A DNA stretch of 64,000 bases, taken from Methanomassiliicoccales archaeon (GTDB taxonomy: Archaea; Thermoplasmatota; Thermoplasmata; Methanomassiliicoccales; JAAEEP01). Positions 13,444-21,022 of the stretch are shown piece after piece; the first letter of the stretch is position 1; each line of letters opens with the position of its first letter. The stretch lies in contig JAAEEP010000003.1 of assembly GCA_013415695.1 (NCBI GenBank), positions 10,882 through 74,881 of the forward strand, in the 5' to 3' direction. The notes beneath the pieces are model-generated. The model did no database searches and had not been told where the DNA came from. It saw only the letters and a list, made by a program, of their open reading frames with translations. The position numbers and the translations under genes are program-made.

Positions 13444-13580
13444 GATGATTTCGAGTACTGACCCTCTCATTTTTCCCATTATTAAACAGCGATAATGAAA
13501 TATAATACGGAATGTGAAATCGTTTATGAACTTGTCATGATCGCGCCAATACGATCGATCATGTAGGGAGGGGGGGACAA

Positions 13581-14297
13581 ATGAAAGTAACAAACCTAGT
13601 GATTGGCGTTATCGTGATTCTCGCCGCTCTTATGATGTTTAGCGTCTCCATAGTCGCAGTATCTTCCGAGACAAAGGCCAAGGGCGATTGTGATATCAGC
13701 AAGATGGTAGAGAATGGTGACATCGACGAGACCATAATTGTACCATTCCCTAGCGGTGAAGATATTCAGGATATTCTTGAGTCTCTTGATCCAGAAGTCC
13801 AAGATACTATCATTGCATGGGCATTAGAGAATCCTGAAAAAGCCGATTTGATCCGGGCTCTGGTCGATTCCATCGACGAAGTCCAGATGGTCTTGGATGG
13901 TAAGTACCATATCAATGCCCATGTTTGGGAGAGAAATGGATGTGGCGATGCAAATGTACATTTCCACTGGAAGGGATCGATTTCTATATCTTTCCTTCAT
14001 TATGAGAATGGTGAGGTAGTCGATACACTGACAATCGATATGGATGTCAAGTGCTTCCAATTCATTCTCCATCTGAAGGACATATGCATTGAGAACAATC
14101 AGATCTGCATCGACAAGGTAATGGTCAACACCATTCTCAGGGGCGAGATGTCTATTACTTCTGACCTTCAAGTGGAGTACCTGCCTCTTGAGCTTGACCT
14201 CTGGTCCCATCTTATTCTTAAGATACAGGATGGAGAAGTCATCATGTTCAAAGTATGGCTGCCATCCTGGTTTGGAATGCTTGTAGCGACGATCTGA
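13581..14297 (+). CDS. Hypothetical exported/membrane-anchored protein
   Basis: Hydrophobic N-terminal segment; GGAGG SD upstream. Confidence 0.7.
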   Translation: MKVTNLVIGVIVILAALMMFSVSIVAVSSETKAKGDCDISKMVENGDIDETIIVPFPSGEDIQDILESLDPEVQDTIIAWALENPEKADLIRALVDSIDEVQMVLDGKYHINAHVWERNGCGDANVHFHWKGSISISFLHYENGEVVDTLTIDMDVKCFQFILHLKDICIENNQICIDKVMVNTILRGEMSITSDLQVEYLPLELDLWSHLILKIQDGEVIMFKVWLPSWFGMLVATI

Positions 14298-14428
14298 ACT
14301 CAAACTCTTACTTTTCTTGATTTTTTCTTAGAGATATCGTCAATTATACTCCAACAATTATAAGTACTAAATTAATTAAGGTAGTAATTTAACATATTAA
14401 ATTTAATAAGATGAATAAGAAAATGGAA

Positions 14429-14569
14429 TTAGGAATTGTCTTTTTGGGACTCTTCATAGAGATCACAGAGTTCATTGAGAAACTCTTCATAGGTCTTTCT
14501 GAATTTGAGTCTGTAAAGGCGGTCGCGAGTGTCGGTCGAGATTTGAATGCTTGTTTTCTTATCTTCCAT
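14429..14569 (-). CDS. Small ribbon-helix-helix-like DNA-binding protein (46 aa; absent from the ORF track)
   Basis: GGAGG SD then MEDKKTSIQISTDTRDRLYRLKFRKTYEEFLNELCDLYEESQKDNS*; GC-richer island within AT-rich DNA; T-rich tract downstream. Confidence 0.8.
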   Translation of the reverse strand: MEDKKTSIQISTDTRDRLYRLKFRKTYEEFLNELCDLYEESQKDNS

Positions 14570-15194
14570 TAGATTCCTCCTATTGATGCGTATAATATCA
14601 TAGTATCTATATTGATTATAGATATAATTGTGTATGTTAATATATATAATTGACTAATTACATATATAATAATACATATTGTAATTTATAATTCAAACAA
14701 TTATTCTTTCAGTATTTACAACATGCATATTATTATAGAAATTATAGAATTATAGTAATATTTTATATCTAAATTATGTTACTTCTATGTATATACATAA
14801 TAATATACAGCGTATCACGCAATTTAGTCAACGACGGTCTCCCGAATATCAACTTAAGTATCCTAAGAAATACGTTTTCTTCCCCCATTTCGACCCCAAT
14901 ATATGGTTTTTAATCTTGCTACATGTTATCACGTGTTCAAATTCAATTTGATATTAGATCTATCTCGGGAAAATCAGGATAGAAAATTCGAATCCTCGAT
15001 AGATCAAAGTAGAATCTCTTACCTAGAATCAAGGTCAAGAGATCTGAAAATCGTTCAATATAGCATAATACTAAAATAATATAGAAAATATTGATAATAA
15101 CTAATATTATAAATGTAATTACTAAATATGTCTAATTTTCATCATCAAGATAGAGATTCTAGATATTGACAATCTTGGGGGACTCATGATGAAG

Positions 15195-15911
15195 CTAATC
15201 ATTCTCTAGAACGAAGTACATCCGCCTGTTGTTCTTCCCTTTGTTCTTCATCTTTGTGAGTTTGATTCTGCCAATTTCAGAAGTGTGTAATACATGACAA
15301 CCACCATCCGGTTGTTTGTCGAACCCTTTGATATCTACGATTCTTACCCTTTCGATGTCTTCAGGTAGTCCCATCAACAATTTTGTTAGATTAGGATCAA
15401 CTTCAAGCTCTTCTCGTGTGATGTGATATGTCTCAACGGGAAGATCCTGAAATACGATCTCATTTGCTTTCTCTACGTAGCTTTCGATCTTTTCTCTATC
15501 AAAATCTTCAAGGGTGAAATCCATTCTGCCTCCGTCGATATCAATCTCATTACCACCGATTTTCACATTGCCCCTGACCCAGAACGCACCGCTTAGAATG
15601 TGGGCAGCGGTATGATGTCTCATGAGTCGATATCTCCTTTCCCATTCTATTCGACCGATTACCTCATCCCCTTTCTTAAGCCCCTCATGGTCTACCTCAT
15701 GGGAAATTTCTCCGTCGGACTTTCCTACGGAAATTACCTTGAACTCTAAACCATCAGATTTTCTAATTATTTCTCCAGTGTCGCAGGCAACTCCTCCTGA
15801 CCTGGGATAGAAAGCTGTTCGATCTAGAACAACATCTTTATCATTTACAAAGACCACCTTGGCATCGAATTCTTTCAAGAACATATCATCCAGGTACAAG
15901 AGCTCGGTCAT
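15195..15911 (-). CDS. alaX: Alanyl-tRNA editing protein AlaX (AlaX-M type)
   Basis: LDRTAFYPRSGG, MRHHTAAHIL, DGGCHV, KNKGKNNRR. Confidence 0.92.
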   Translation of the reverse strand: MTELLYLDDMFLKEFDAKVVFVNDKDVVLDRTAFYPRSGGVACDTGEIIRKSDGLEFKVISVGKSDGEISHEVDHEGLKKGDEVIGRIEWERRYRLMRHHTAAHILSGAFWVRGNVKIGGNEIDIDGGRMDFTLEDFDREKIESYVEKANEIVFQDLPVETYHITREELEVDPNLTKLLMGLPEDIERVRIVDIKGFDKQPDGGCHVLHTSEIGRIKLTKMKNKGKNNRRMYFVLEND

Positions 15912-16149
15912 GCAAACGCCTCTCATATTACTGAAGAAGATTTAGTTTGAAGAAACTATCGATTGAGCTAACAATAGCATCATTGTCTCGCTAGAAATTC
16001 GAGGTCCATTAATAGAGATGTTCTTCACGGGATAATGTCGCCACATGATTATATTTCCAGCATTATGTTAAATAAAGGAAATAAGGGAATTGGTTTGTAA
16101 GAGGTTTTCGTGGCCTAATGTCCTTCATTCAATCTCCTTAGGAAGGGTT

Positions 16150-16698
16150 TCATCCCTTCACAAGGAGAGGAAGGACCATGTCTCCCTTGACCGTGTTGGT
16201 CACAATCGCCAAGCCTAGATAGGAGGCGAAAATGCCCAGCAGCGCCAGGAAGACGCCTGACAGAGTCTTCAGTGTCTCTCCACCATCGATCCACCAGTAT
16301 CCAACAAGGATTAGGGCGATAGCAGCTACAAAGAGGACAATGGTCACCATCCTGACAGGTTGTGCCAAGGAAATGATGCCCATTACCAGCAGGTATACGC
16401 CCATGAAGAGAATCAACGTGGAGACCGCCTCAGGCGTGTCTGCTATTACGGTAGGAAACACGTAGAAGAATACTGCAAGGGGGCCGAACAGAGCGGTTCC
16501 AAACAGATTGTCGTTCAGGAAAGCCATAATGGTTACTGCGGCCAGGGCGATTCCCACAATACCGCTGAGTCCTCCGACCATGAAACTTAGTCCATACTGG
16601 TCGAAGAATACAAAAGCCATCATGAAGGCTATCCAGCCTATCAGTATGACCCCGAAGGCATCCGCCATCGCGACCTTAATTTTTGTCTCATCTGACAT
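16150..16698 (-). CDS. Six-TM transporter, probable GPR1/FUN34/YaaH (SatP acetate uptake) family
   Basis: Six hydrophobic segments; N-x-FG-x-A-x-F and Y-x-G-L-A...N...G...LP patterns. Confidence 0.65.
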   Translation of the reverse strand: MSDETKIKVAMADAFGVILIGWIAFMMAFVFFDQYGLSFMVGGLSGIVGIALAAVTIMAFLNDNLFGTALFGPLAVFFYVFPTVIADTPEAVSTLILFMGVYLLVMGIISLAQPVRMVTIVLFVAAIALILVGYWWIDGGETLKTLSGVFLALLGIFASYLGLAIVTNTVKGDMVLPLLVKG

Positions 16699-16740
16699 GT
16701 TGTACACTCCAGATGTTAGTTCCATTCAAAAGGAATCTTG

Positions 16741-16880
16741 ACTGAGGGTTCCTCAGTATCATAATAATGGCCCCCCCAAGCCATGTTCTGCAATCATTTC
16801 GAGTTGCATCCGATCCCTTCCTCACAGATCTAGGACCTTTATCAGGTCTAGACAGCGAATCCTCAGGCATCCATTATTAT
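16741..16880 (-). ncRNA. Candidate structured 5' leader RNA
   Basis: 10-bp closing stem plus four hairpins, starting about 25 nt downstream of a TATA-like element. Confidence 0.45.
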
Positions 16881-17168
16881 ACTTTATCTATTAAGAATGT
16901 TAAAATTATAATATTTTCTATAACGTCTGAATAAAGGCTAAAATTCATCATATTAACAAATAATAACCAATTTATTCATCAATATGATTAAATATTCAAA
17001 GCCAATGTGCCAGAATCTCTAATTTGTTATCAAACAGGAATTAACTCTTTTTGTTCGTCATTCGTCGTGATATTCTTCGTATCGTTCCGAACTATTTTTC
17101 AATTCTTAATTATTGGAATTTGAAAGCTCACATTATTGTGGAAACGCCCCAATCATGCGCGTGTTTCA

Positions 17169-18032
17169 TCATAACTGGATGGTCAGTTCACCTTCACTAG
17201 AAACTCCATCTTTCTTCATAGGAAGTTCAATGAATTTCTGATGTTTTGGATTTTTTATCCGGGAAGCAATAATCCTCTGAACTTCGTTGAAGTCCTCAAT
17301 GGAAACCAATGGTTTATGTTGCGAGGAAATGATCAAATTGTCCCATCTGAGAAAACCAGCATATACTGGGTTATGAAGGATGCGGCTTATTGACCACAGG
17401 GTCCAGAGATTATCTTTTTTGGTCGGTATGTCCTGTCTATTGAGATCCCAGGAAATCCAGTCCATTGTCTGCCCCGCTAGGTACGCTTTGAAAATATGTC
17501 TGACTTTTTCGGCCTCAAATTCTTCAGGAGCCAGTCCATCTTCTTTTAATTCATAACCGTAGGGTATCCTGAAACCGAGCAGACCATCACCTGATTCTGC
17601 TTTTTGCTTCATACCCATATATGTTCGCTCACCGATCTGCTCACTTTCAAGCTGAGCGATCCTTTGGATGATGTCCACAACAAATCTACCAACTGCATTG
17701 GAGGTATCGAGCGACTCCTGCATAGAGGCAAACTTCTTCCCCCAACTTTCGAGGTTCTCCATCATAATCATAAAGTTCTTGCTGTTCCTGTGAATGCGGT
17801 CCATCTTGAGTACCAGAATGGTATCCCACGAGTCGCGTTGTTCGATCATCCGTTGGTATTCCGGTCGTTGGGTATTCCTTCCGCTGTGTCCTTCATCTAC
17901 ATAGAAATCGGTGATTGTCCAGCCTTGAGCCTCACAATAGGCCTCGAGACGTTCCTTCTGGGCGTCCAGGGAGTATCCTTCCTTTGCCTGATCATCCGTC
18001 GATACCCTAGTGTAGATGGCAACCCTAGACAC
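17169..18032 (-). CDS. Serine recombinase (resolvase + recombinase domains), copy 2
   Basis: AIYTRVSTDDQ, DEGHSG, KMDRIHRN, PYGY, ILHNPVYAG, HKPLVS; GTG start at 18032. Confidence 0.92.
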   Translation of the reverse strand: MSRVAIYTRVSTDDQAKEGYSLDAQKERLEAYCEAQGWTITDFYVDEGHSGRNTQRPEYQRMIEQRDSWDTILVLKMDRIHRNSKNFMIMMENLESWGKKFASMQESLDTSNAVGRFVVDIIQRIAQLESEQIGERTYMGMKQKAESGDGLLGFRIPYGYELKEDGLAPEEFEAEKVRHIFKAYLAGQTMDWISWDLNRQDIPTKKDNLWTLWSISRILHNPVYAGFLRWDNLIISSQHKPLVSIEDFNEVQRIIASRIKNPKHQKFIELPMKKDGVSSEGELTIQL

Positions 18033-18885
18033 CGATCTCACCCATCTCCTGCTCAACAAGAGTGAGTTCACCGAGCCTCTCACGATTCCTTATTCCTCGC
18101 CTCATCCGGATCTGTACCCGGTTGAATACTTCTCTTGAGATTATTGGATCATGTTCCCTCTGACGAAGGATTCCGTCCCATCGAATGAAGCCGCAGTAAA
18201 GGGGATTCTTCAACATCTTGGATATCGCTTGCTTGCTCCACTCCTTCCCGGTCTTAGAGGGCACACCAAGATGATTTAGCGATTCGGCAATCTCCCGCAG
18301 ACTCATTCCATCTAAGTATCGTCGGAAGATATCCTTCGCGATATTCGCCTCTTCTTCAATGATGGTCAAACCCCCATCTTTATATGAATATCCATAGGGG
18401 TGTCCGGAGCCCAGATAGCCATTTCCCCTTCTTGCTTTTTGCGTCATCCCGAACTTTACTCTTTCACCTATCTGTTCACTCTCCAACTGGGCGATTCTTT
18501 GTATGATGTCCATTACAAATCGGCCCATTGCGGTGGTAGTGTCGAAACTTTCCTGCATGGAGTTGAATTCCTTTCCCCACTCCCGCAGGTCATCCATCAT
18601 GAGTGTGAAGTTCTTGCTGTTCCTGTGAATGCGGTCCATCTTCAGAACGACAAGAACGTCCCAGAGATCTCTTTCAACCATCATTCTTTGGTAAGCTGGG
18701 CGATTGACTTCTCTCCCACTATGGCCGTCATCAATGTAACGGTCAGTTGGTTCCCAACCTCTGGCCTTGCAATAGGATTCCAGGCGCTTCAGTTGGGCAG
18801 CTATGCTGAAACCTTCCTTGGCCTGATCTTCCGTCGATACTCTAGCATAAAGGGCCGCTCTCAGTTGGGAACCTCCTTCTGACAA
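18025..18885 (-). CDS. Serine recombinase (resolvase + recombinase domains), copy 1
   Basis: ALYARVSTEDQ, DDGHSG, KMDRIHRN, PYGY, LKNPLYCG, HDPIIS; true start may be CTG at 18864. Confidence 0.92.
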   Translation of the reverse strand: MSEGGSQLRAALYARVSTEDQAKEGFSIAAQLKRLESYCKARGWEPTDRYIDDGHSGREVNRPAYQRMMVERDLWDVLVVLKMDRIHRNSKNFTLMMDDLREWGKEFNSMQESFDTTTAMGRFVMDIIQRIAQLESEQIGERVKFGMTQKARRGNGYLGSGHPYGYSYKDGGLTIIEEEANIAKDIFRRYLDGMSLREIAESLNHLGVPSKTGKEWSKQAISKMLKNPLYCGFIRWDGILRQREHDPIISREVFNRVQIRMRRGIRNRERLGELTLVEQEMGEIGV

Positions 18886-18944
18886 ATGTATGACAATTAT
18901 TCGAATATTTAATTAATATGTCAGACATTTCAGCTACTGAAATG
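18884..18944. promoter_or_regulatory. Inverted-repeat cluster in the recombinase/OB-fold divergent promoter region
   Basis: AAATGTATGACA-N23-TGTCAGACATTT (11/12 match) and CATTTCAG-cta-CTGAAATG. Confidence 0.55.
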
Positions 18945-19066
18945 ATGTCCTGGAAGATCGCTATTCTTGAATTGGATGAGAATATGATGAGATTTTTTAG
19001 TAAGAGCGAAAAAGGTAGTAATGATAACTCTAATAGTAGAAACTCAAATTAAATAATGGATATGGG

Positions 19067-19507
19067 ATGGAACTGGCAATGGATGAAGACCGGGAGCTGG
19101 AAGAGAAGATTGCAGAGCTCAGGGAGGAATTCGGAGCACTCCTGAACGACGAGGCCATTAAGAAGCTAGCCCTAGAAGAGCTCGGGAAACTCGTATTGAA
19201 CCGAAAGCAAATCTCGGATCTCAGAGATCGAGAAGGAGCCTCACTTGAGGTAAGGGTGATAAAGATATACGAGACTCGTGAGTTCAATAGAAAGGATGGG
19301 ACAACCGGTTATCTCCGAAAGATCTTGATAGAGGATGATTCGGGAAGTTGCCAGCTTACGCTTTGGGATGACGACATCGAGATCCCAGAGACCTTAGGCA
19401 TCACTGAAGGTTCCAGGTTAGCCCTTATCAACTTCTATATCAAGATATCCGATTTCGGTGTAGATGCGAACAAAGGGAAGATAGGAAGGATTGAGGTATT
19501 GGCTTAA
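19067..19507 (+). CDS. Single OB-fold nucleic-acid-binding protein (RPA/SSB-like)
   Basis: REFNRKDGTTG...IEDDSGSCQLTLWDD; N-terminal helical region like archaeal RPA. Confidence 0.85.
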   Translation: MELAMDEDRELEEKIAELREEFGALLNDEAIKKLALEELGKLVLNRKQISDLRDREGASLEVRVIKIYETREFNRKDGTTGYLRKILIEDDSGSCQLTLWDDDIEIPETLGITEGSRLALINFYIKISDFGVDANKGKIGRIEVLA

Positions 19508-19557
19508 CATTAACTATATTAGTATATATCGAAAACACCTAAACTAATATATGTGAC

Positions 19558-20325
19558 TTAATAATCGCCTATTCTTTCTTTGAGCCTAGCAACCTCTTCC
19601 TCAAGGAGTTCAACCCTCTTTCTCAACAGGAAGCCATCTATTTCCTGGAAACATACGAGTTTAGGGCCGTGCTGCTTCTTGTAATCGTATTTCCCGAAAG
19701 AGTCGACATCAACGGTCCAGCCCTTCTCTTCGTCGAAGAACTCGATTAGTAAGGTGGGTTCGGCATACTCGTTAGCTATCTTCTCCCAATGGTAAACTGG
19801 GACTTTGAAATAGCGGCCGCCTCTGCGCATGATGTCCTCGTATCTCACACTTCCATCCCCGTATATATGGAATGTACCAGAACTGGTATTGATTCTCTCT
19901 TCGACGTTCTTGAGATCTAGGATATAGCTAGCGTAGAAATACTCATTCAAGAGATCCTCCAGTTCTTTCTTCTTAGTCAATAGAGTGGCTTGAGCTTCCT
20001 CATCGAATCCCTCATCCATCCGGTTGAGTATCATTCTAAGATCGGCGACACCTTTTCCTTCCCTTGTAGGAATCCCTTCTTCTGGTTTGATCTCTCCGCA
20101 GAATCTGCACACATGAACTATTTCTCCCTCTTTGAGGTTCAGGGGAGCTATTTTCTCATACCACCAGTCGGAATGATCCCCTATGGACGGGATCCAAGAG
20201 CGTTCGATCAATCTCTGATCATACTCGATATGGGTCAGCAATTCCTCCTGACGGAGGGTTCTACCACAGTCCCTGCATATGAAGTAAATCGTCTTGTCCT
20301 CAGCCATTTGTGGAACCCCATCCAT
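19558..20325 (-). CDS. Hypothetical protein with two CxxC motifs and a C-terminal coiled coil
   Basis: CRDC, CRFC; LRKRVELLEEEVARLKE. Confidence 0.7.
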   Translation of the reverse strand: MDGVPQMAEDKTIYFICRDCGRTLRQEELLTHIEYDQRLIERSWIPSIGDHSDWWYEKIAPLNLKEGEIVHVCRFCGEIKPEEGIPTREGKGVADLRMILNRMDEGFDEEAQATLLTKKKELEDLLNEYFYASYILDLKNVEERINTSSGTFHIYGDGSVRYEDIMRRGGRYFKVPVYHWEKIANEYAEPTLLIEFFDEEKGWTVDVDSFGKYDYKKQHGPKLVCFQEIDGFLLRKRVELLEEEVARLKERIGDY

Positions 20326-20421
20326 TTTAATAAATCAGGTATAAGTCCATCCATTAATACACCTTGCTAATATGCAGGCGGAGTTAGGAACTATACTCCC
20401 AATTTTCGGAATGTTTATCAT

Positions 20422-20907
20422 ATGAGTGGTACAAATGTAATGAATATGGTCTTGAAGATCGAGAGCCCAGCTTTCAGAGAGGGGGAGATGATTCCGAAGA
20501 GGTTCACCTGTGATGGTGAAGATATTTCCCCTCCGCTTTCATGGAAGGAGGTTCCTAATGGGACCAGATCTCTGGCCATCATCTGCGACGATCCAGATGC
20601 TTCAACAGGTACTTGGGATCACTGGATCTTGTTCAACATAGATCCGTCAAAAGGAGGACTACCCGAGGCCGTGTCCAAGGAAAGGCGATTGCCCGGAGGG
20701 GAAATCCATGGAAAGAACAGTTGGGGCAGATCCTATTATGGAGGTCCCTGTCCACCCCCTGGAAAGCCTCATCGCTATATCTTCAAACTTTTCGCATTAG
20801 ATACAAGACTATCAATATCTCCTGGATCTAATAAATCCGAGTTGTTGGAGTCGATGAAAAAGCATATTTTGGACAAGGCACGATTGGTGGGAATTTACGG
20901 CAGATGA
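20422..20907 (+). CDS. YbhB/YbcL (PEBP) family protein
   Basis: CDGEDISPPLSW, DDPDA, HWILFN, GPCPP, HRYIF. Confidence 0.95.
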   Translation: MSGTNVMNMVLKIESPAFREGEMIPKRFTCDGEDISPPLSWKEVPNGTRSLAIICDDPDASTGTWDHWILFNIDPSKGGLPEAVSKERRLPGGEIHGKNSWGRSYYGGPCPPPGKPHRYIFKLFALDTRLSISPGSNKSELLESMKKHILDKARLVGIYGR

Positions 20908-21022
20908 AGTAATGGTCCATACATCAATTCGTGTTCTAAGTATTCCTTTCTATATTATTTGCCAATGTCTTGAATGAGAGTAGAAGAATAAGGAAAAGAG
21001 ATTTAAGGGAAGGGGTTTGGGT

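Follow-up and report, generated by a model that had tools for sequence, protein, structure and literature searches.

We analyzed a 64-kb window, the whole stretch of DNA presented above, from the genome of a Methanomassiliicoccales archaeon (1.99 Mb, 1994 predicted genes). It contains two overlapping genes for short serine recombinases, here called A and B, and a 26-bp sequence that is a candidate for their recombination site. Judged by comparative sequence analysis, it is probable that these elements form a heteromeric serine-recombinase/dif-like module that has replaced XerA/dif for the resolution of chromosome dimers. In the genomes that we compared, the genes and the site co-occur, lie far from the replication origin (oriC), and are found where XerA is not. 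These genomes are an order set of 151 Methanomassiliicoccales genomes, 119 of them of high quality, and a phylum set of 251 Thermoplasmatota genomes; families carry f-numbers and genomes G-numbers. Papers are cited by PMC number.

Recombinases A and B are short serine recombinases conserved throughout the order

The first-pass annotation of the window had described A and B as overlapping paralogues of about 280-290 residues with intact catalytic motifs and a recombinase domain, ending before the zinc-ribbon and coiled-coil region of large serine integrases, and our analysis bears out each part of this description. The GTG start of B at 18032 overlaps the stop of A by 8 nt, and the two proteins are 56% identical across 259 residues. 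Each has only two Pfam matches, PF00239 (Resolvase) and PF07508 (Recombinase), both above cut-off, and they are the sole PF07508 genes of the window genome. The motifs YARVS/YTRVS and KMDRIHRNS are intact in A and B and are at least 90% conserved among 47 A, 44 B and 19 single-gene orthologues. Neither protein has a Pfam match to a zinc ribbon or a coiled coil, neither element appears in an AlphaFold2 model, and most of the complete orthologues shown stop about 250-290 residues past the catalytic tyrosine motif. The model, built from a 60-sequence alignment (mean pLDDT 78.5, with a low-confidence tail), predicts a catalytic domain, a long helix E (residues 119-153) and a recombinase domain. 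Its top Foldseek matches are serine integrases, and its recombinase domain fits the A118/LI structure 4KIS at 2.7 Å.

The recombinase family is matched in 139 of the 151 order genomes, with at least two matches in each, and in 114 of the 119 high-quality ones; the best match in G055 is weak. Named relatives come mostly from Methanomassiliicoccales and other Thermoplasmatota. In the phylum set, 102 of 251 genomes carry the family at the threshold used there, 1e-40 (two of them at only 36% identity), and no member was found among 24 genomes from other orders of the same class. The order has the A/B pair, and families f13, f23, f26, f37 and f44 mostly have a single gene. In a FastTree phylogeny of 196 sequences, the A copies of the order form one clade (62 sequences, support 0.86) and the B copies another (56 sequences, support 0.96), with family sub-clades inside both. 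The duplication that gave rise to A and B may predate the order, because the pairs of f46 fall partly as sisters in this tree.

The genes surrounding A and B are host genes (thermosome, membrane protein, ribosomal protein and signal recognition particle genes, with names assigned by reading the sequences), and the genic GC content of the locus is at background level. The best phage match to the recombinase is 40.9% identical, and among 80 loci on viral contigs only one exceeds 43% identity and is itself the same host locus. These results, together with the phylogeny, support the view that the pair is fixed, vertically kept and chromosomal rather than carried on a mobile element, which agrees with the initial proposal of a domesticated pair without mobile cargo. 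In a profile search, full-length proteins of 460-490 residues rank only below about 50 short ones, which is consistent with an origin of the short recombinases by truncation of an integrase ancestor.

Several variants of the locus were seen. A and B are split by 1.7-2.1 kb of inserted DNA, with both retained, at L243 (G004), L242 (G099) and L056, and one 4.9-kb IMG/VR 'viral' contig (L357) is this host locus, with the OB gene described below, A, B, the membrane protein and DUF7557. Certain single-gene lineages have, after the recombinase gene, one for a Cys4 and recombinase-domain protein that lacks a catalytic domain. This arrangement was seen at L043-L045, L061, L062, L065, L068, L080, L094, L105, L106, L208 and L211, and the comparison of neighboring genes counted 14 such loci.

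A 26-bp candidate site accompanies the recombinase genes

The 26-bp motif was found from words shared downstream of B among loci. In the window it is non-coding, lies 2.3 kb downstream of B within an intergenic gap that is AT-rich, has 0 mismatches, and is the sole match within 3 mismatches in the genome. At up to 3 mismatches, the site occurs in 90 of the 151 order genomes, as compared with 1 of 151 for a control, and is present as a single copy in 88; G001 and G086 have two matches each, and the match in G127, a genome without the pair, is degenerate. For 69 genomes, the site and the pair have coordinates on one contig. They are on the same strand in 67 of these, the median distance between them is 3.9 kb, and the site is within 20 kb of the pair in 65. 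A check of reads for inversion or excision in four DNA runs found no joints, and three of the runs bridge the site unchanged, although the contigs are fragmentary and rare events could escape.

A related site is found beside the recombinase gene of other lineages. The frame GT-N5-WCGG-N4-CCGW-N5-AC adjoins this gene in 21 of 28 other-lineage loci and in 0 of 28 controls. Five f13/f44 genomes each have one site at 0-1 mismatches, always beside the recombinase gene, and across nine families the site may be upstream or downstream of that gene. A looser phylum-wide pattern was dropped because its controls matched often.

The length of the site equals two 13-bp recombinase-domain footprints, since LI integrase makes contact with 13 bp of each half-site through its recombinase domain (PMC3783163), and serine recombinases make cuts 2 bp apart (PMC5357621). 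In 49 sites, the variable positions are 13-15, and positions 10-12 and 16-19 are invariant; these sites were chosen by pattern, so the observed variation is a lower bound. Given these invariant positions, the site does not have a layout of 11-bp arms and a 6-bp spacer. No repeated accessory sub-sites were detected by eye in its flanks. Symmetry of the outer arms is 5.94 of 7 in single-gene lineages (two positions being built into the pattern) versus 1.96 of 7 beside A/B (23 distinct order sites). The arms vary between the other lineages yet remain symmetric, and none of the 36 distinct symmetric sites from these lineages has a palindromic central dinucleotide, which points to polar strand exchange.

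From the asymmetry of the site alone, we infer that A and B would act on it as a heteromer. A different arrangement would have one paralogue resolving dimers by itself while the other is redundant, regulatory or active elsewhere. Single genes do suffice in other lineages, and at the 14 loci with a Cys4 partner that partner lacks a catalytic domain. However, the site is asymmetric precisely where the pair occurs, the helix region ahead of NPxY in the recombinase domain (the DNA-recognition helix region) differs consistently between A and B in a comparison of consensus sequences, and the catalytic serine is kept in both paralogues across the order. We therefore regard action by one paralogue as distinctly unlikely.

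It is very unlikely, in our judgment, that the site belongs to some other protein (DUF7557, an unrecognized tyrosine recombinase or a transcription factor) and that the pair acts on a different target. Of 30 site loci, 23 have the DUF7557 gene 180-285 bp past the site, the f13/f44 site overlaps the promoter or ribosome-binding region of the recombinase gene, and 95 of 101 order genomes have some PF00589 match, with none in the other 6. Against this, the site is retained in three complete genomes without DUF7557 (G033, G093 and G006) and in four genomes without a PF00589 match (G033, G046, G066 and G057), it tracks the recombinase gene on either side in the nine families, and positions 11, 12 and 16 of the would-be 6-bp spacer are among those invariant in 49 of 49 sites.

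Least probable of all, and to us barely credible, is a role of A and B as an integrase or invertase encoded by the host, with the site serving as a landing pad for mobile elements or as an end of an invertible segment. Although their nearest relatives are full-length phage-type integrases and two genomes (those named above) have two site matches, the single copy in 88 of 90 genomes leaves no second end, the flanks are host genes, the only viral-contig locus above 43% identity is the host's own, and the proteins are without the zinc ribbon or coiled coil for attP/attB discrimination.

The genes and the site lie far from the replication origin

The oriC adjoins the ORB (origin recognition box)-flanked cdc6.1 gene (PMC4153887), and we placed it accordingly; ORB-like matches were seen in 14 of the 15 complete genomes used. 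The A/B pair is 0.30-0.50 genome lengths from this gene in 15 of 15 complete genomes (G111 was excluded, having no listed coordinate, and the length of G106 was assumed, a rounded size yielding the same fraction of about 0.41). For the 26-bp site, measured in 12 complete genomes, the distance from oriC is 0.31-0.49 genome lengths. The second gene, cdc6.2, shifts between families (0.02-0.05 to 0.33-0.46).

In G006, G037, G093 and G060 the site is 47-168 kb from the genes, and in all four it is nearer the antipode. The coding-strand bias of G006 turns at 940-950 kb, with the site at 942 kb and the genes at 1067 kb. Likewise, that of G037 turns near 370 kb, 26 kb from the site (344 kb), with the genes at 264 kb, and the GC skew of G037 agrees with the position of the site. 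GC skew on the window's own contig gave no information.

The recombinase family and XerA are mutually exclusive

The first-pass annotation had named the presence or absence of xerA as informative. Our XerA profile was made from 11 XerA-like proteins; the first one matches PDB 5HXY along its full length. The profile scores are bimodal in the 251 phylum genomes: 40 genomes score at least 273 bits, which we took to define a XerA orthologue, and the next score down is 208 bits. None of the 102 genomes that carry the recombinase family is among these 40. Within the order, the profile search gave no orthologue-level match in 151 genomes; the best score is 201 bits, only 19 genomes reach 1e-35, and five of the ten best weak matches adjoin tRNA-Leu, as integrases do. 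The initial suggestion had been dimer resolution or inversion. The first of these is now strongly favored over the second, because XerA and the family exclude one another and because the site is single-copy and far from oriC.

Two tyrosine recombinases of the window genome were considered as XerA and rejected, as neither has a XerA-profile match at 1e-35. One is a divergent 303-aa protein encoded directly upstream of radA (G000:C4:1178-2089, L228), and the other is a 177-aa protein consisting of the catalytic domain only (G000:C35:3719-4252, L229). Elsewhere in the phylum, f33 (34 of 35 genomes) and f16 (16 of 18) have a conserved tyrosine recombinase at 173-193 bits and no member of the serine family. 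This protein is single-copy, has an open frame of about 340-440 aa and is distinct from XerA orthologues, and it is possibly a third type of dimer-resolution enzyme in the phylum. In f17 and f30, 0 of 8 genomes each have either system at the thresholds used.

The promoter of A shares boxes with smc and ribbon-helix-helix genes

A pair of TGTCWGACA boxes lies behind the TATA box of A in 13 of 13 cases in f3, 8 of 8 in f5, 1 of 1 in f4 and 1 of 2 in f1 (23 of 24 in these families, as compared with 1 of 23 in f2, f6 and f7). The same box lies behind the TATA box of operons in which a ribbon-helix-helix (RHH) gene precedes ftsZ and of solo RHH genes, and the same pair with an 11-bp period is present in 6 of 6 smc promoters. 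Single boxes occur upstream of 14 of the 1994 predicted genes, which is about chance, so only conserved cases count. No box within one mismatch was found at ftsZ genes that have their own promoters. CdrS of Haloferax is an RHH cell-division regulator with a symmetric operator, encoded by a gene that precedes ftsZ (PMC8406309). The arrangement here is alike in that the RHH gene precedes ftsZ and the box is symmetric and stands at RHH-ftsZ, smc and recombinase promoters; it differs in that, comparing by description, the Haloferax motif is mostly upstream of promoters whereas the boxes here are just behind TATA. The boxes are likely a CdrS-type RHH operator and not a recombination site. The A-promoter palindrome was rejected as such a site since the box recurs at RHH, RHH-ftsZ and smc genes and is missing in f6 and f7.

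Across Thermoplasmatota, smc, RHH-ftsZ and solo RHH genes have the box (T/C)GTCNGAC(A/G) immediately behind their TATA box (G000:C17:6697, L276; G000:C37:84158, L226; G000:C38:10177, L225; also L281-L285, L249-L251, L257-L259, L252-L255 and L270-L274), and this set is a probable cell-cycle regulon with a readable operator. Three boxes with an 11-bp period precede the gene for a membrane protein of 227 aa that has a cysteine motif at its C terminus (G000:C30:7573-7601, L111; L112); it is a candidate member of the regulon. A second RHH-ftsZ operon (G000:C40:13309, L224; L244-L248) has its own repeated TATGAC(A/G) boxes, and the window genome has six ftsZ-like genes. The word GGGATG(G) recurs in 5' leaders of the order, often just past promoter boxes (L002-L030, L281-L285).

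Proposed mechanism and points against it

By analogy with characterized serine recombinases, we infer that A and B bind the site, act on it catalytically and form a heteromer. One A and one B subunit would bind the two unlike 13-bp half-sites, and two sister sites on a chromosome dimer would synapse as a 2A+2B tetramer. All four strands would be cut around the central 2 bp, and the subunits would rotate by 180 degrees and religate the strands to give two monomers. In serine integrases, the distinction between attP and attB is normally made by the zinc ribbon and coiled coil (PMC3783163); lacking both elements, A and B would make no such discrimination, which would suit recombination of a site with an identical site.

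The directionality of resolution is the weak point of this model. A bias toward resolution would come from outside, most plausibly from Smc loop extrusion that pairs sites within one molecule. Such pairing has been proposed for dif copies (PMC11840125) and would fit the co-regulation of A with smc. Expression would be timed to the cell cycle by the operator common to smc and RHH-ftsZ. DUF7557, on the AT-rich DNA next to the site, may assist the bias in some families.

We lean toward a longer history in which a phage-type integrase lost its directionality module, gained a 26-bp site resembling dif and took the place of XerA in much of Thermoplasmatota, after which, in a repeat of what happened in Xer evolution, a system of one gene and a symmetric site became an obligate A/B heteromer with an asymmetric site, wired into the smc/ftsZ regulon, with Smc giving directionality.

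A role other than resolution is also conceivable, in which A and B bind a terminus site and mainly unlink catenanes by subunit rotation, unload or block Smc, or anchor the terminus at division. All of the linkage and position evidence is compatible with such a role, as is the operator common to smc. Precedents are the domain boundaries described close to dif in euryarchaea and the unloading of Smc by XerD (PMC11840125). The conserved catalytic residues of both paralogues, the non-palindromic central dinucleotide of the 36 symmetric sites and the mutual exclusion with XerA all speak against it, and we consider the alternative role unlikely.

Several observations weigh against the replacement of XerA/dif by A, B and their site. 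Of the order genomes, 61 of 151 lack the site at up to 3 mismatches. Genus g4 has the site in 0 of 17 genomes at that threshold, although G008 has a 4-mismatch version. A relaxed search of five earlier misses recovered the site in G060, G057 and G008, and the complete genomes G078 and G101 carry the pair with no convincing site even by that search. Seven of the 28 other-lineage loci have no nearby site, and the loose phylum-wide pattern is too noisy to show that the site is absent from XerA genomes. G009 and G014, congeners of the window genome in 110 and 170 contigs, are without the genes, the site and XerA. With regard to position, G033 has a distance of only 0.30-0.31 from oriC, and the GC skew of G006 peaks near 1030 kb, between the site and the genes. 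Families f6 (0 of 9), f7 (1 of 13) and f2 (0 of 1) lack the shared operator ahead of A. Furthermore, 12 of the 102 family genomes also hold a weaker tyrosine recombinase match, and the exclusion may rest on few independent events, as the genomes are related by descent. Lastly, 47 of the 251 phylum genomes have neither system; because xerA and dif deletions are obtainable in Thermococcus (PMC11840125), such genomes need not contradict the model.

Comparison with known recombination systems

The A/B system would work like Xer/dif but belongs to none of the Xer, serine integrase, Ccr or small resolvase groups. Like the Xer systems (XerC/XerD-dif, XerS/difSL, XerH/difH and archaeal XerA/dif; PMC5357621, PMC2958812; PDB 5HXY), it has core chromosomal recombinases and, on each chromosome, a single short non-coding dyad site that is far from oriC. 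The distance is 122-144 degrees and up to 180 for archaeal dif, and 112-177 degrees for the site here. The linkage of genes and site resembles that of XerS and XerH, and both groups have versions with two genes and an asymmetric site and with one gene and a symmetric site. In contrast to the Xer proteins, A and B have the serine fold (PF00239 and PF07508 only, with no PF00589), the site is 26 bp with a variable center of about 2 bp rather than 11+6+11, and the family occurs where XerA orthologues were not found.

With the large serine recombinases (A118/LI, TP901-1, Bxb1, phiC31 and SPbeta), A and B have the catalytic domain, helix E and recombinase domain in common, and phage integrases are up to 41-43% identical to the A/B family. 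However, A and B are about 280 aa as compared with 460-490, lack the zinc ribbon and coiled coil, have no attP/attB pair, element or cargo, and are core, vertically kept genes. CcrA and CcrB of SCCmec are, like A and B, tandem paralogous recombinases of the large serine type and are their best NCBIfam matches. Nevertheless, A and B score 100-159 bits against cut-offs of 700-900, match the N-terminal half only, and do not lie in a cassette context, whereas Ccr proteins are full length and mobilize a cassette. The small serine resolvases (Tn3/gamma-delta, Sin and beta) use serine chemistry to resolve replicon multimers and cointegrates. A and B differ from them in having a recombinase domain instead of a C-terminal helix-turn-helix and in being chromosomal and paired, with one 26-bp site; the small resolvases and invertases are about 190 aa and use a multi-subsite res or two inverted sites.

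Every dimer-resolution system covered in a review (PMC5357621) relies on tyrosine recombinases. For archaea that lack xerA, Cortez et al. suggested the recruitment of another tyrosine recombinase (PMC2958812). Archaeal serine recombinases have been seen in transposons and, according to PMC8371274, never fully investigated. The words Xer, resolvase and recombinase do not appear in the main text of PMC4153887. Our literature search found no report of the present system, and supplementary tables (PMC4153887, PMC8371274), which were outside that search, could list the genes or a missing XerA. The system of A, B and the 26-bp site is real, conserved and apparently undescribed in the literature searched. 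If the proposed function is true, a housekeeping function has been replaced across protein families in a whole methanogen order and several other Thermoplasmatota lineages. With the proteins and the site both defined, two questions would become testable: how directionality is imposed in archaea in the absence of FtsK, and how an enzyme of the large serine type functions when it has no zinc ribbon and coiled coil. Compact tools for genome engineering may also come from the recombinases of about 280 aa and their matched 26-bp sites, among them a two-subunit version for targets that are asymmetric.

Other features of the locus and neighboring genes

Table 1. Features of the A/B locus, with positions counted from the first letter of the window.
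Feature	Position	Strand	Description
Recombinase A	18025-18885	-	286 aa; catalytic domain, helix E, recombinase domain; catalytic Ser17
Recombinase B	17169-18032	-	287 aa from likely GTG start; paralogue of A
Candidate dif-like recombination site	14827-14852	-	26 bp, consensus TTGATATTCGGG-AG-ACCGTCGTTGAC
TGTCWGACA-type boxes	18878-18927		A promoter; predicted operator of CdrS-like RHH regulator
35-nt identity	17773-17807 = 18608-18642	+	exact, maximal; encodes KMDRIHRNSKN in B and A
Single-OB RPA-like gene	19067-19507	+	divergent from A; RPA/SSB NCBIfam matches, all below cut-off
DUF7557 gene	14429-14569	-	46 aa; PF24434 above cut-off; 283 bp past 26-bp site

The open reading frame of B extends to 18083 (17169-18083(-)) and would encode 304 aa if the first GTG were used. 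The true start of A may be a CTG at 18864, where orthologues begin in an alignment of the upstream region. No tRNA genes were found in the 64-kb window, and Rfam gave no match within 13500-21000. The first-pass annotation of this locus did not include the 26-bp site, which falls outside its coordinates, the DUF7557 gene or the promoter boxes.

The first-pass annotation had also noticed that A and B share an identical 35-nt stretch, which our coordinates confirm (Table 1). Across 43 loci, codon identity between A and B in the KMDRIHRNSKN block is 0.68 within genomes versus 0.48 across genomes, and the block is codon-identical in 6 of the 43 loci versus 0.3% of cross-genome pairs. Because codon identity is higher within genomes than between them, the stretch is likely a tract of occasional gene conversion between A and B, to which shared codon bias could contribute. 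It was rejected as an att site, being coding, spanning the most conserved motif and carrying this conversion signal.

The divergent single-OB (oligonucleotide/oligosaccharide-binding fold) gene predicted beside A is indeed present, in 27 of the 30 best-scoring loci. It was found in 7 of 20 wider regions and in 0 of 12 16-kb regions from f7, and it is absent from all single-gene lineages examined. It is thus a conserved local neighbor in part of the order and not a required part of the system, and the suggestion that the OB protein is an accessory factor did not survive this loss of linkage. DUF7557 was not found in the complete genomes G033, G093 and G006 or in G151; it is possibly an accessory, dispensable DNA-binding protein.

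A 191-aa membrane protein without a Pfam match, which we take to resemble the SatP/GPR1-FUN34-YaaH transporters, is encoded at 16150-16725 (-) and is conserved downstream of B in f3, f6 and f7. A gene of about 55-60 aa, presumably AbrB-like, lies directly upstream of the recombinase gene in f26 (where it was clustered) and, by eye, in f45 and f46 (L213-L216, L230-L232).

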